A DNA stretch of 8,973 nucleotides, from the IMG/VR virus record IMGVR_UViG_2529292829_000013; one strand, given 5' to 3'. Both the position numbers and the translations under genes were made by a program. Shown one piece after another: positions 380-7,160 of the stretch. Positions within the stretch are counted from its first letter, which is position 1. The number at the start of each line of letters is the position of its first letter. This DNA comes from a virus (taxonomy: Duplodnaviria > Heunggongvirae > Uroviricota > Caudoviricetes). Under the pieces are notes generated by a model. It did no database searches. It saw only the letters and a list, made by a program, of their open reading frames with translations, and was not told the origin of the DNA.

Positions 380-949
380 ATGATCGTAGATGTTGAGGAG
401 AAAACAGTTAATGATTTCTTTAAAAACTACACACTCTCACCTTTTTCTGTAAGAAGGTTTTATCCGTCATACTTGATAGTAGAATGTGAAGATTTTTCAT
501 TGTTAAGGAACTTGGTTGCATGCTTGAATTGTGATAGCAAAACCGTGGATGTAGTTAGAAATCAAATATCACTTGCATGTCTTGCTGTCTTATCTTCAGA
601 GAAAATAGTGCAAAGTTTTTTGTTCGGAAGTCTTAATAGCTTAGGTTGTAAAGTTAAGGCTATTATTCACTCGGATATCTCAGCGTCATGGAGACTTTGT
701 GATATATCTTCAAGATTATATATGAGCGAGAGTTTGTTAAAAAGAAAATTAAAAGACGAAGGATTATCGTTTAGTAAATTAATTCTTGAAGAACGAATGA
801 TGATGGCGCAAAGATTATTGATCTACAGTAACCATACTGTCGGCAAGGTGGCGGGAATATGCGGGTATGACAATGCATCATATTTTGTAAGTGTTTTTAG
901 AGGATATTTTGGTGTGCCTCCGCACCAATATTTATCAAGATTTTCTTAG
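380..949 (+). CDS. AraC/XylS-family transcriptional regulator (AppY/EnvY/GadX-like), apparently N-terminally truncated next to the IS3 end
   Basis: 189-aa ORF whose C-terminal ~90 aa look like an AraC double helix-turn-helix (LLKRKLKDEGLSFSKLILEERMMMAQRLL...GYDNASYFVSVFRGYFGVPPHQY). Family members are usually ~240-260 aa. The frame is open back only to 347, there is no Shine-Dalgarno before the ATG, and the IS3 end is at 331. Confidence 0.7.
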   Translation: MIVDVEEKTVNDFFKNYTLSPFSVRRFYPSYLIVECEDFSLLRNLVACLNCDSKTVDVVRNQISLACLAVLSSEKIVQSFLFGSLNSLGCKVKAIIHSDISASWRLCDISSRLYMSESLLKRKLKDEGLSFSKLILEERMMMAQRLLIYSNHTVGKVAGICGYDNASYFVSVFRGYFGVPPHQYLSRFS

Positions 950-1017
950 AAGATATGATGTGATGGCATTTTATAAAGTTATTTTTTGAAGTGTAAGATT
1001 ATACGATATTTTTAGCT

Positions 1018-1049
1018 ACGCCAGAATAATTGCTGGCGTTTTTCTTTTT
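1018..1049 (+). terminator. Rho-independent terminator (for the AraC-like gene, or a tR'-like late terminator upstream of the holin)
   Basis: Stem CGCCAG (1019-1024), 8-nt loop, CTGGCG (1033-1038), then T-run tttttcttttt (1039-1049). Confidence 0.6.
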
Positions 1050-1139
1050 GAATAGATGTTCGGGCCTTACGCTAATGTAACTTCTTTCCTTCTTCGAACC
1101 AAACCGTGTACACCATCCGTTATCTGCGGAGGTGAGGCT

Positions 1140-1355
1140 ATGAAATCCATGGATAAGTTAACAACGGGCATCGCCTACAGCACCTCTGCAGGCAGTGCTG
1201 GCTACTGGTTTTTACAGTTGCTCGATAAAGTCACGCCCTCACAGTGGGCGGCAATAGGTGTATTGGGTAGTCTGGTATTTGGCATGCTGACGTATCTGAC
1301 AAACCTTTATTTCAAGATTAAAGAAGACAGGCGTAAGGTTGCGAGAAGAGAGTAA
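1140..1355 (+). CDS. essQ: Phage-21-type pinholin (S21 / EssD/EssQ family), dual-start motif MKSMDK
   Basis: 71-aa product [71 protein letters not shown] with two transmembrane segments and a charged C-terminus; strong SD GGAGGTGAGG upstream; Met1 and Met4 mirror the S21 71/68 dual start. The ORF-track start at 1056 is an unsupported upstream extension. Confidence 0.85.
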
Positions 1356-1359
1356 TCCA

Positions 1360-1911
1360 ATGACTCAAGACTATGAACTGGTTGTGAAAGGAGTTCGCAA
1401 TTTTGAGAATAAAGTGGCGGTAACTGTAGCCTTACGGGACAAAAAACACTTTGACGGTGAAATTTTTGACCTGGACATCTCGCTGGACCGTGTTGAAGGT
1501 GCCGCGCTGGAGTTTTATGAGGCAGCAGCCAGAAGGAGCATCAGACAGGTCTTCCTGGATGTTGCTGCCGGGTTATGTGAAGGGGATGAGCAGTCGCCGG
1601 AAAAGCGCCCCATAATTTTAGAGGCGCAGAATGTGTGGATAACCTACAAAGGAAAGCTACCGGGAAGAATTACTGGTTCTCTGAAGACGCCACCGACGGC
1701 ATTGCGGTCAGAAAAAGATGATATTGAATCGCCCATTGAAAAACTGGAGGGCAGCGTCGCTGATCTGAATAAAAAATTGTCGGTGCTGATTCCTTCTGAA
1801 GATGAAAAAAAACGCCGCGATGAGCAGTTTGCGGCGTTTTACGATTATTGCATTGAAGTTACTCGCAGGAATTTTGTGAAGATTTTTGAGGAGGGTAAAT
1901 CTCTTCAGTAA
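1360..1911 (+). CDS. Hypothetical prophage protein; N-terminal part ydfR-like (DUF826-like), with a C-terminal extension of unknown function
   Basis: ATG at 1360 with SD-like agaagagag 7-8 nt upstream, 4 nt after the holin stop; 183 aa with coding-like codon usage throughout. My recollection is that the K-12 protein at this position (YdfR) is ~103 aa and begins MTQDYELVVKGVRNFENK; that recollection is unverified. Confidence 0.6.
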   Translation: MTQDYELVVKGVRNFENKVAVTVALRDKKHFDGEIFDLDISLDRVEGAALEFYEAAARRSIRQVFLDVAAGLCEGDEQSPEKRPIILEAQNVWITYKGKLPGRITGSLKTPPTALRSEKDDIESPIEKLEGSVADLNKKLSVLIPSEDEKKRRDEQFAAFYDYCIEVTRRNFVKIFEEGKSLQ

Positions 1912-2119
1912 GCTTATTGGCGGACGCTGCAATTAATTCAGGAAGGTCCGCAAGGTCATCTGTCAGTGGATATGATGAAAAATCGGCGGCAGTTCTGTTA
2001 AGAAGCGCTTTAACTAATTCCTTTTCCTTCTCCGGCAACAAGTTGATTAGAGCTACGACTGCTTGCCTGAGTGCGATTAAATCAGCAAAAGTTTGTTTAG
2101 GTAGATTTGTGTAATCCAT
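1859..2119 (-). CDS. Hypothetical 86-aa acidic protein, convergent with and overlapping the 3' end of the ydfR-like ORF
   Basis: ATG at 2117-2119 (minus) preceded by AGAGG 7 nt upstream; product MDYTNLPKQTFADLIALRQAVVALINLLPEKEKELVKALLNRTAADFSSYPLTDDLADLPELIAASANKLTEEIYPPQKSSQNSCE; I recognise no family. Confidence 0.45.
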   Translation of the reverse strand: MDYTNLPKQTFADLIALRQAVVALINLLPEKEKELVKALLNRTAADFSSYPLTDDLADLPELIAASANKLTEEIYPPQKSSQNSCE

Positions 2120-2232
2120 AGTCGCCTCTGTGTTTATCAGATTGACATCCTCCTCCCGCCAGTGCCCATCACTGGTGAGGTAAGATTTAACATATCCGGG
2201 GATTTGAAGCCGATAAATCCTGATAAATATCC

Positions 2233-3260
<1,028 letters not shown>

Positions 3261-3622
3261 ATTAATATTAAATCGGATTATTTTTAGCGCTGAATGTGAA
3301 ATTTAAATAAAAAGGACTCTTCCATGAGTCAAAATCCTTGAAATCTTAAGGGTAAGATAAAAGGTCATTAGACAGAATGACACGTTTTATTAATAAATAA
3401 AGCTATTGTTTCATTCGTGTGTTTTTCTTTACAAAAGTAATCCTTGCTATGGTTGGTTAATCATGCGTTAATGGTGTTCTGGTTTGTTACAAAATTATCT
3501 GAAGCAGTCATTGTTATAATTTTATTATTTGTACCTCTTGAGATTTCCTTGTTGGTTTTTCTCTCTGATATTTTTTTCGGACCATTCTGCCCAAGGGCTA
3601 ACTTCTTCAAAAGGTAATAATG
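3261..3622 (+). promoter_or_regulatory. AT-rich promoter and long 5' leader region of the cold-shock gene cspI
   Basis: ~360 bp AT-rich non-coding stretch with a TATAAT at 3516-3521; CspA-family genes characteristically have long structured 5' UTRs. Exact promoter elements are not resolved. Confidence 0.4.
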
Positions 3623-5734: not shown

Positions 5735-5980
5735 ATGGATCGAGAGTTAAAAAATCTGACGCTGAATATCAGTCAACTGGCGGCACTGTCAGGTGTACAT
5801 CGCCAGACTGCTGCGGCAAGGCTGCAAAATCTACCCGTTGCAGGGGGGCATGAAAGCAACCTCAAGCTTTATCGGGTGGTTGATATTGTGTCGGCATTTC
5901 TGGCATTACCACCGCCGGTTGCAGAAGGCGAAATGGACGCGCATGAGCGCAAAGCCTGGTACCTTCTGCCCGTAAGGTGA
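5735..5980 (+). pseudogene. nohQ: Terminase small subunit (Nu1 homolog, NohQ/NohA-like), C-terminally truncated fragment
   Basis: N-terminal HTH region (NISQLAALSGVHRQTAAARLQNLPVAGGHESNLKLYRVV) parallels lambda Nu1; the ORF stops after 81 aa (Nu1 is ~180 aa) and the tail-fibre frame begins at the same point. Confidence 0.7.
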
Positions 5981-7160
5981 ATGGTAAGGCGCTTTCAGCT
6001 GATATAACACTGACGCCGAAAGATATTGGTACGCTTAACTCAACAACAATGTCATTCAGCGGTGGTGCTGGTTGGTTCAAATTAGCAACGGTAACCATGC
6101 CACAGGCGAGTTCTGTTGTTTCAATTACGTTGATTGGTGGCGCGGGATTTAACGTGGGGTCACCTCAACAGGCAGGTATATCTGAACTTGTTTTGCGTGC
6201 AGGTAATGGTAATCCGAAGGGGATTACTGGTGCTTTATGGCAGCGCACATCGACAGGGTTTACAAATTTTGCCTGGGTCAATACATCTGGTGATACTTAC
6301 GATATTTACGTTGCAATCGGAAATTATGCGACTGGTGTAAATATTCAATGGGATTATACCAGTAATGCCAGCGTGACGATTCATACGTCACCAGCATATT
6401 CTGCTAATAAGCCGGAAGGGTTAACGGACGGTACAGTTTATTCACTCTATACGCCATCAGAGCAGTTTTATCCGCCTGGCGCACCAATCCCGTGGCCATC
6501 AGATACCGTTCCGTCTGGCTATGCCCTGATGCAGGGGCAGACTTTTGACAAATCTGCCTACCCGAAACTTGCAGCCGCTTATCCGTCAGGCGTGATCCCT
6601 GATATGCGTGGCTGGACGATTAAGGGCAAACCTGCCAGTGGTCGTGCCGTATTGTCTCAGGAACAGGACGGCATTAAATCGCACACCCACAGCGCCAGCG
6701 CATCCAGTACGGATTTGGGGACGAAAAACACATCGTCGTTTGATTACGGAACCAAATCCACGAATAACACCGGGGCGCATACCCATAGTATTAGCGGGAC
6801 TGCAAATAGTGCCGGTGCGCACCAACACAAGAGTTCCGGTGCATTTGGTGGCACGAACACGAGCATTTTCCCTAATGGTTATACCGCGATTTCAAATCTA
6901 AGCGCGGGGATTATGAGCACAACAAGCGGTAGTGGCCAGACTCGTAATGCAGGGAAGACATCATCAGATGGTGCTCATACCCACTCGCTGTCCGGCACTG
7001 CTGCAAGCGCAGGCGCACATGCACATACTGTCGTATTGGTGCTCATACGCACTCCGTTGCGATTGGCTCACATGGACACACCATCACCGTTAACGCTGCT
7101 GGTAACGCGGAAAACACCGTCAAAAACATCGCATTTAACTATATTGTGAGGCTTGCATAA
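5977..7160 (+). pseudogene. stfQ: Side tail fibre protein, C-terminal portion only (StfQ/StfR-like), with a 1-nt frameshift near 7033
   Basis: No ATG start; the frame opens at 5947 inside the nohQ fragment. The product has His-rich GAHTHS-type repeats typical of Stf C-termini. After ...SAGAHAHTV the listed frame gives [15 protein letters not shown]..., while the other frame from 7035 gives [42 protein letters not shown] and ends at TAA 7158-7160, overlapping the tfa ATG. Confidence 0.75.

Follow-up and report, generated by a model that had tools for sequence, protein, structure and literature searches.

The region analysed here occupies positions 1360-2232 of an 8,973-nt stretch of DNA, IMG/VR virus record IMGVR_UViG_2529292829_000013 (hereafter the window), which is a degraded Qin-like lambdoid prophage of Escherichia coli. 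The region lies within the lysis cassette, between the genes of an S21-type pinholin and a SAR-type endolysin. It holds two open reading frames (ORFs), a long allele of ydfR on the plus strand (ydfR-183) and a convergent gene on the minus strand (orf86), which overlap by 53 bp (1859-1911). An earlier reading made from the letters alone (the sequence-only reading) had described a 183-aa ydfR-like ORF about 80 aa longer than its K-12 counterpart, a convergent acidic ORF of 86 aa with a good ribosome-binding site (RBS) and a 53-bp overlap, and a distance of 878 bp between holin and endolysin. This description was borne out: K-12 YdfR has 103 aa, Orf86 has a mass of 9.5 kDa, a pI of 4.6 and a net charge of -5, its start codon is preceded by a Shine-Dalgarno (SD) sequence, and 877 nt were measured from the holin stop to the endolysin start (2233). 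No domain had been recognised in the C-terminal extension of YdfR or in the 86-aa protein, and none was found by searches with hidden Markov models (HMMs) and structures. Mosaic boundaries of the region, a hairpin conserved within it, and an upstream element and leader that are shared by unrelated small genes in the same place are reported here. The coordinates are compiled in Table 1.

Table 1. Features of the region between pinholin and endolysin (the slot) and ends of its homology to other alleles; positions are those of the window, and cargo denotes the leftward ORF carried in the slot.
Feature	Position	Strand	Remarks
S21-type pinholin, 71 aa, flanking the slot on the left	1140-1355	+	PF04971, E=3e-34
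ydfR-183, YdfR/DUF1327 late gene, 183 aa with 71-aa C-terminal tail	1360-1911	+	
Conserved YdfR N-domain segment, codons 1-69	1360-1565	+	blastn 87-91% identity to K-12 Qin, ending at 1565
ydfR codons 70-112, common to 114/116-aa alleles, absent from K-12	1566-1696	+	homology to HH194M, S51 and 24AR0357 stops at 1695/1696
ydfR tail segment common to 169-, 211-, 263-, 296- and 329-aa alleles	1697-1851	+	left breakpoints elsewhere at 1718, 1774 and 1850/1851
Intrinsic terminator of orf86	1805-1840	-	inside ydfR codons 149-161; plus strand encodes KKRRDEQFAAFY
DNA specific to the 86-aa cargo type (ORF, SD, proximal leader)	1852-2154		between the innermost breakpoints 1851 and 2155
orf86, 86-aa acidic protein, slot cargo	1859-2119	-	phrog_2572 1-86/86, E=4e-53
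SD sequence of orf86, AGAGG	2125-2129	-	6 nt before ATG; kept in PhiR12_1 and L010
5' stem-loop of the putative orf86 leader, CCAGTG-N5-CACTGG	2159-2175	-	in leaders of six cargo families
Promoter-like element, ~50 nt, ATGGATATTTATCAGGATTTATCGG...GGATATGTT	2185-2234	-	reaches with its 5' end into the complement of the endolysin ATG
SAR-type endolysin, 177 aa, flanking the slot on the right	2233-2766	+	PF00959, E=3e-24; labelled rrrQ
Left homology end	1520		72-aa YdfR type
Left homology end	1558-1565		K-12 and 243-aa types
Left homology end	1696		114/116-aa types
Left homology end	1718		268-aa type
Left homology end	1774		176- and 329-aa types
Left homology end	1851		263-, 296- and 329-aa types
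Right homology resumes	2155-2158		five other cargo types
Right homology resumes	2189		90-aa and 93-aa types
Right homology resumes	2206-2227		cargo-less alleles and K-12

Both ydfR-183 and orf86 are real genes, and their products are already catalogued as unnamed phage proteins: Orf86 corresponds to phrog_2572 over its full length, and YdfR-183 aligns end to end with phrog_2091 (1-183/183, E=8e-112), both of which carry the label 'unknown function'. Exhaustive searching with phmmer and profiles revealed two more clades of the orf86 family, with proteins of 93 aa and 89-93 aa and identities of 41-55%. The ratio of nonsynonymous to synonymous substitution rates (dN/dS) between the three clades was 0.23-0.26, at dS>1. 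In all seven homologues from the three clades the orf86 frame alone was free of stops, and every other frame had at least two stops in each. The AlphaFold2 (AF2) model of Orf86 was a three-helix protein (pLDDT 72; helices 8-25, 30-48 and 59-74). Judged by the between-clade dN/dS, the sole stop-free frame and the predicted fold, orf86 genuinely encodes a protein.

Pfam, NCBIfam and PADLOC gave no match for Orf86 or for the YdfR tail, and no significant family or fold match was obtained for Orf86. The anti-CRISPR protein AcrIIC4 (PDB 7xvo, 8hns; 88 aa) is, like Orf86, small, helical and encoded by a prophage. A weak collinear profile match was found between the two over residues 25-86 (HMM E=0.11; real score reached by 0 of 20,000 shuffles). 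The match stayed short of significance and was discarded as evidence, because no fold search supported it. A 975-aa repeat protein (P0020) from the exhaustive phmmer search for orf86 was set aside as a spurious match through repeats or low complexity, and a match of the YdfR tail to PARP1 (E=0.016) was taken as compositional.

The ydfR gene starts directly downstream of the holin gene (1360), in a layout that is identical in K-12, CFT073 and phages. Residues 1-112 of YdfR-183 match DUF1327 (PF07041) on profile positions 1-92/93 with 143.4 bits (cut-off 25). K-12 YdfR (P76160, Qin, DUF1327) also follows directly after an S21-type holin and is about 86% identical over residues 1-69, whereas past codon 69 the window sequence is unrelated to K-12 and adds a linker of low confidence and a two-helix tail. 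The AF2 model of YdfR-183 comprised a beta-beta-beta-alpha N-domain (1-73), a low-confidence stretch (70-127) and helices of modest confidence (123-143 and 147-182). Length differences among the alleles of 169, 176, 183, 211, 296 and 329 aa were all in frame, and dN/dS of the tail (0.5-0.7) was near that of the accepted N-domain (about 0.5). Fragment 1-72 of K-12 YdfR was found in a 2026 study to bind the catalytic (N-terminal) domain of RNase E, and the protein co-purified RNA (PMC13232886). Codons 1-69 correspond to this fragment, and with ~86% identity over these residues it is plausible that the N-domain of the window protein binds RNase E as well. The conserved core of YdfR consists of residues 1-69 only, which helps in the design of follow-up work on RNase E binding.

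Intact long ydfR alleles (183, 263, 296 and 329 aa) were marked by PGAP as pseudogenes ('incomplete; missing C-terminus') in 10 of 10 RefSeq E. coli records inspected, and 600-1050 bp ahead of the endolysin were left unannotated in these records. The call is made because the ORF exceeds the family model of 103-114 aa and not because it is broken, so that the label looks like an artefact of the family model. The mislabelling of intact alleles as C-terminally truncated by NCBI PGAP is a useful point for annotation. The alleles of 296 and 329 aa (L006 1658-2647, L014 1461-2351) carry an additional C-terminal region of ~160 aa (…ISENGKVTPPSHQHSEELIEFAIDYLKNNKKQG…) that has neither a family match nor a convergent gene. 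The 329-aa protein is a mosaic of the insert of the 176-aa type, the hairpin segment of the 86-aa type and this additional region.

The sequence-only reading had proposed an alignment with Qin-type prophages in search of a break of identity partway through ydfR. Such a break was found at nt 1565 (codon 69), and identity with K-12 Qin was regained at 2223, 10 nt ahead of the endolysin ATG. In K-12 Qin, ydfR (1749-2060) overlaps the start of the endolysin gene rrrQ (2057-2590) and no convergent gene is present; homology with the window is interrupted only across 1566-2222. Comparison with other alleles placed the ends of homology at several further positions on both sides (Table 1). Between the window and PhiR12_1 the cassette was ~95% identical, compared with ~79% in the flanks, and the ydfR tail was more than 95% conserved although the N-domains joined to it differ at pS ~0.65. 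From the gap between cassette and flank identity, and from the occurrence of one tail on divergent N-domains, it follows that the transfer of the module by recombination is younger than the divergence of its neighbours. The stretch 1360-2232 is therefore best explained, in our view with good probability, as one allele of a recombination-exchangeable slot that extends from the YdfR N-domain (codons 1-69) to the endolysin start.

Of 5426 complete E. coli genomes, 5162 gave the S21-type cassette in a megablast of 1100-2800. Among them, 291 genomes from many hosts had the full arrangement (coverage of 1100-2800 of at least 80%), and the inner 492 bp (1697-2188) were complete in 294, including CFT073. 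The deposited phage genomes PhiR63_1 and 2H10 carry the cassette with 97-98% identity. The exact 86-aa and 183-aa proteins were each found on at least 1000 contigs, and their clusters include E. albertii, E. fergusonii and Shigella. A scan of representative genomes gave matches in E. coli only, which indicates that the orf86 family is narrow; Salmonella members were found in non-representative genomes. Taken alone, the finding is ordinary, both ORFs being catalogued hypothetical proteins that are present in ~5% of complete E. coli genomes. Literature searches on the locus, on the protein accessions and on morons in lysis cassettes returned nothing specific; their coverage was incomplete, so that a prior description is possible.

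With these data the interpretation given in the sequence-only reading could be narrowed. The region had been regarded as a cargo insertion or replacement, and relative to K-12 it is a replacement module with a cargo gene; it is, however, neither unusual nor a one-off event in the window genome (294 of 5426 genomes). The accompanying premise that at most one small gene separates holin and endolysin was too narrow, as small ORFs in convergent orientation are often found between ydfR and R (one such type has a 114-aa YdfR and a 90-aa ORF). The same reading had named widespread occurrence of both ORFs as conserved core genes as the result that would speak against it. The same proteins are indeed widespread and form PHROG families, but they represent alternative slot alleles and not core genes.

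In the slots of other prophages, at least seven families of leftward cargo ORFs were found (86/93, 90, 87, 98, 104, 116 and 210 aa), among which no homology was detected by blastp or hhalign (probabilities <3%). The other cargo proteins mostly match PHROGs, all of them families of unknown function, and have no match in Pfam, NCBIfam or PADLOC. Every cargo type, including orf86, the 90-aa ORF of the HH194M type and the 210-aa ORF, is preceded by the promoter-like element. It contains a -35-like hexamer TTTATC (2217-2212), a 17-nt spacer and a -10-like hexamer TATGTT (2194-2189). Scanning IMG/VR with 19 nt of the element yielded more than 120 loci, and behind it lies either a member of one of at least seven cargo families or nothing. 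Conservation falls right after TATGTT. This hexamer was found in all 56 IMG/VR loci that bear cargo and in 17 of the 37 without cargo (the loci are not independent). The Salmonella-type loci keep the element although the small gene sits after Rz there and no endolysin start is adjacent. From this pattern the conserved element is taken as a putative promoter of the cargo genes.

The hairpin GCCAGTG-N5-CACTGGC in the leader is common to the families of 86, 87, 98, 104, 116 and 210 aa and is kept by means of G-U wobbles; five of these six families are homologous to the window from 2155-2158 rightwards. The leader stem-loop, which recurs at L051, L087, L103, L117 and L130, may serve as an mRNA stabiliser or as a regulatory hairpin. 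Downstream of most cargo ORFs there is a hairpin with a T-tract.

A 7-bp direct repeat with a 10-bp period (ATTTATC-AGG-ATTTATC, minus strand, 2210-2229) lies over the putative -35 position. It is near-invariant across cargo types and Salmonella-type loci, and its geometry resembles that of response-regulator boxes which replace a -35 hexamer. The 210-aa convergent ORF (MLIYPAADLRL...) occurs in the slot of some prophages of Shiga toxin-producing E. coli (L013 2036-2668, minus strand; L061, L130, L144). It has no match in Pfam, PADLOC or PHROG and shares ~250 bp with the 3' end of the gene for a 263-aa YdfR.

The intrinsic terminator of orf86 is embedded in the ydfR reading frame. On the plus strand it reads A8, CGCCGC, a 12-nt loop, GCGGCG and T4; read on the minus strand, the stem leads into T8 (AAAACGCCGC-N12-GCGGCGTTTT and further T's), 18 nt past the orf86 stop. 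Folding gave -17 kcal/mol and z=-2.6 for the minus strand, and z=-3.7 for the plus strand. All positions of the 8-bp stem were paired in the 8 sequences compared, which represent 3 clades, with one compensatory exchange of G-C to A-U that changes RR to HH and AA to VA in the protein. In clades with a coding dS>1 the stem was invariant or compensated. A decayed copy of the hairpin remains where the 210-aa cargo has replaced orf86.

As ydfR has no stop ahead of the orf86 unit, its translation continues across the terminator and 53 nt of the 3' end of orf86 and yields a 183-aa protein of 20.8 kDa with a 71-aa tail. The KKRR...FAAF motif of YdfR tails is the terminator stem. A leftward terminator inside a translated rightward late gene provides a tidy case of overlapping signals that shape a protein C-terminus. 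A weak minus-strand hairpin (GCGCC-N13-GGCGC followed by TTTT, 1605-1627) is located in ydfR codons 82-90 (EKRPIILEA) and corresponds to the terminator-like site behind the 90-aa cargo of the 114-aa-type alleles. Possibly this hairpin is left over from an earlier cargo; the YdfR tail would then have grown by accretion.

Read leftwards, the slot contains the promoter-like element (2234-2185), the stem-loop leader (2175-2159), the SD sequence, orf86 (2119-1859) and the intrinsic terminator (1840-1805). These would form a self-contained transcription unit that fits the definition of a moron (Juhala et al. 2000, as cited in PMC4104026); together with the exchangeable slot, this is the explanation that we consider probable. 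The flanking genes ydfR and rrrQ are adjacent in K-12 Qin, and the unit has its own intrinsic terminator (a hairpin with T8; the T-tract is weak in two clades). As with lambdoid morons, a small gene with its own terminator and a candidate promoter separates two late-operon genes that lie side by side in a related phage, and the unit is mosaic in distribution and was exchanged more recently than its flanks. Textbook examples of morons are lambda bor and lom. Unlike lambdoid morons, the orf86 unit lies inside the lysis cassette in convergent orientation, and its terminator and 3' end fall within the coding sequence of the upstream late gene. A further difference is that at least seven alternative cargo ORFs use one upstream element and leader, like a fixed expression platform with swappable ORFs.

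In the lysogen, orf86 would be transcribed from its own putative sigma-70-type promoter, and the terminator would stop antisense transcription from entering ydfR and the holin gene. During lytic growth, Q-modified polymerase, aided by ribosomes that translate ydfR over the hairpin, would read through rightwards and would suppress orf86 by convergent transcription. Unrelated cargo is turned over in the slot, which suggests that its functions are accessory or related to conflict. Orf86 is most likely a prophage accessory protein under turnover of the arms-race type, which might act, for example, in exclusion, defence, anti-defence or host modulation.

Several points weigh against the moron interpretation. 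The promoter match is weak (3/6 at -35, 4/6 at -10), a generic consensus promoter scan made no call at the conserved element, and the conservation of the element could reflect the translation-initiation region of the endolysin, which it overlaps. The -10 hexamer is retained in 17 cargo-less alleles, and the IMG/VR loci are phylogenetically non-independent, so that the Fisher p-value overstates the association of TATGTT with cargo. The terminator loop is long (12 nt), its covariation consists of a single compensatory event, and the T-tract is poor in clade 3 and in the Salmonella-type loci. No cargo family could be assigned to a function by family searches. Among close E. coli variants, dN/dS of orf86 was 0.3-0.7; these values are uninformative, as the antisense frame of a 65-aa ORF (plus strand, 1917-2114) shares the wobble positions of orf86 and the two frames cannot be separated.

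S21-type lambdoid lysis cassettes contain a previously unremarked variable slot, and its cargo is a compact candidate set for prophage accessory functions. The slot also offers a candidate promoter and leader that are easily tested.

Four other explanations were weighed against the moron interpretation. The assumption that the 86-aa ORF is no gene but a chance or antisense reading frame could appeal to the 65-aa ORF with shared wobble positions, which deprives the close variants of their value, and to the depositors of PhiR63_1, who left orf86 unannotated. Set against it are the between-clade dN/dS and the stops in all other frames in all seven sequences, in addition to a conserved start and SD sequence, a full-length PHROG family and a moderately confident fold; it is virtually untenable. 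Hardly more credible is an insertion or recent replacement of cargo that is private to the window prophage. The break of K-12 Qin identity at 1565, its return at 2223 and the degraded state of the prophage, with its insertion sequence (IS) remnants, would agree with such an event, but it is refuted by distribution: 291-294 complete E. coli genomes, drawn from many hosts, have the identical arrangement, which is found as well in E. albertii, E. fergusonii and Shigella and in the phage records 2H10 and PhiR63_1. The third explanation holds that the long ydfR is a decayed gene, its tail being untranslated or a functionless read-through product, and that only orf86 matters. The PGAP pseudogene label in strain D2, CFT073 and others points in this direction, as does the low AF2 confidence of the tail (52-64) behind a low-confidence linker, and the embedded terminator accounts for part of the tail conservation. 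The ORF is nevertheless intact and has a complete DUF1327 match (1-92/93), the PGAP call reflects a length mismatch with the model, and all indels among the alleles are in frame. The dN/dS of the tail is close to that of the N-domain, and the stop-free frame means that the tail is made whenever ydfR is translated; decay of ydfR is thus judged quite unlikely.

The remaining explanation, unlikely but to be given somewhat more weight than decay of ydfR, is that Orf86 and the YdfR tail form a functional two-component pair, in which a lysogen-expressed protein is neutralised, or its mRNA silenced, by the late overlapping partner, with a switch tied to lysis or RNase E. In the orf86 family the late strand encodes a YdfR fusion (183, 169 or 243 aa), an unrelated protein of 144 aa or the product of a free-standing 73-aa gene; the convergent 3' overlap of 53-59 bp is retained in all three clades. 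The 73-aa gene, located after Rz, has its own SD sequence and a dN/dS of 0.32-0.39 in its non-overlapping half, and hhalign matched its product to the YdfR tail (probability 88.7%, E=2.5e-6). The reported binding of K-12 YdfR to RNase E and its co-purification with RNA (PMC13232886) would also suit a pair of this kind. The match between the partners, however, covers the last ~37 residues only. These residues are encoded by DNA shared with the terminator and 3' end of orf86, so that the match is inseparable from constraint on the other strand and an independent protein relationship is not proven. Other cargo families adjoin unrelated or very short YdfR tails, such as the 114-aa type. No toxin-antitoxin (TA) or anti-phage defence model in PADLOC, Pfam or NCBIfam matched Orf86, the YdfR tail, the 73-aa partner or the other cargo proteins.

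Convergent type I TA loci with overlapping 3' ends are known from prophages, such as txpA/RatA and bsrG/SR4. The window resembles them in having convergent transcription units of a prophage that overlap at the 3' end. In contrast to these loci, both partners in the window encode soluble proteins, a hydrophobic toxin-like peptide is absent, and TA and defence models gave no match.

A far-reaching form of the pair, which we regard as improbable, would make the slot an arms-race locus. A fixed platform (the promoter element with its direct repeat of 10-bp period and the stem-loop leader) would express swapped small effectors in the lysogen, and in the orf86 family the cognate off-switch would be supplied by the overlapping late partner, whether YdfR tail or free 73-aa protein. 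Firing of the late operon would then cancel lysogenic protection or host modulation at the level of both RNA and protein. A link to the RNase E-binding N-domain of YdfR is possible.

In Salmonella enterica prophages (L019-L022, 5001-5445), a 93-aa orf86 homologue and the 73-aa late gene form the same convergent pair with overlapping 3' ends. There the pair sits after a DUF2514 Rz gene; the holins of this cassette are unrelated (Phage_holin_8, Phage_holin_3_7), and its endolysin is a GH19 enzyme. This context indicates that the pair of orf86 and the 73-aa gene moves independently of ydfR and of the S21/R21 genes.

The genes of the window are, from left to right, an IS3-family transposase fragment, an AraC-type gene, the pinholin gene, the ydfR-like ORF, the convergent 86-aa ORF and the lysozyme gene, followed by Rz/Rz1, csp, gnsB, a truncated DUF1441 gene with a tail-fibre fragment, Tfa and the Pin invertase gene. 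The pinholin was labelled essQ or class II holin in near-identical genomes. The N-terminus of the endolysin is hydrophobic, and the protein would be expected to show SAR behaviour. The Rz protein belongs to DUF2514 (PF10721) and its gene has an embedded Rz1-like ORF (2914-3210). With PF04971, PF00959 and PF10721 the order of a phage-21-type cassette (pinholin, SAR-type endolysin, Rz/Rz1) is present. The lysis cassette of phage 21 is identical in order and likewise has a PF04971 pinholin, a lysozyme with an N-terminal hydrophobic SAR-like segment and a DUF2514 Rz with an embedded Rz1-like ORF; it differs in that the window has 877 nt with ydfR-183 and orf86 between holin and endolysin. Rfam gave no RNA family in 900-3500 at E<=1.

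The DUF1441 gene is cut off at about residue 76 and adjoins the C-terminal fragment of a tail-fibre gene (5735-7149). Because all head and tail genes are missing, the prophage is defective, as is K-12 Qin. The region upstream of the holin gene, a classical moron site downstream of Q, contains a gene of an AraC-type helix-turn-helix protein (380-949) and the IS3-family transposase fragment (76-291). The cassette of strain D2 is 99.9% identical to that of the window. In D2 the AraC-type gene was scored as frameshifted, and lipocalin and YbgA genes are also present there. An IS3 element between a terminator-like site (1018-1039) and the holin RBS is present in D2 and absent from the window (window ~1130-1135 compared with L001 6037-7291).

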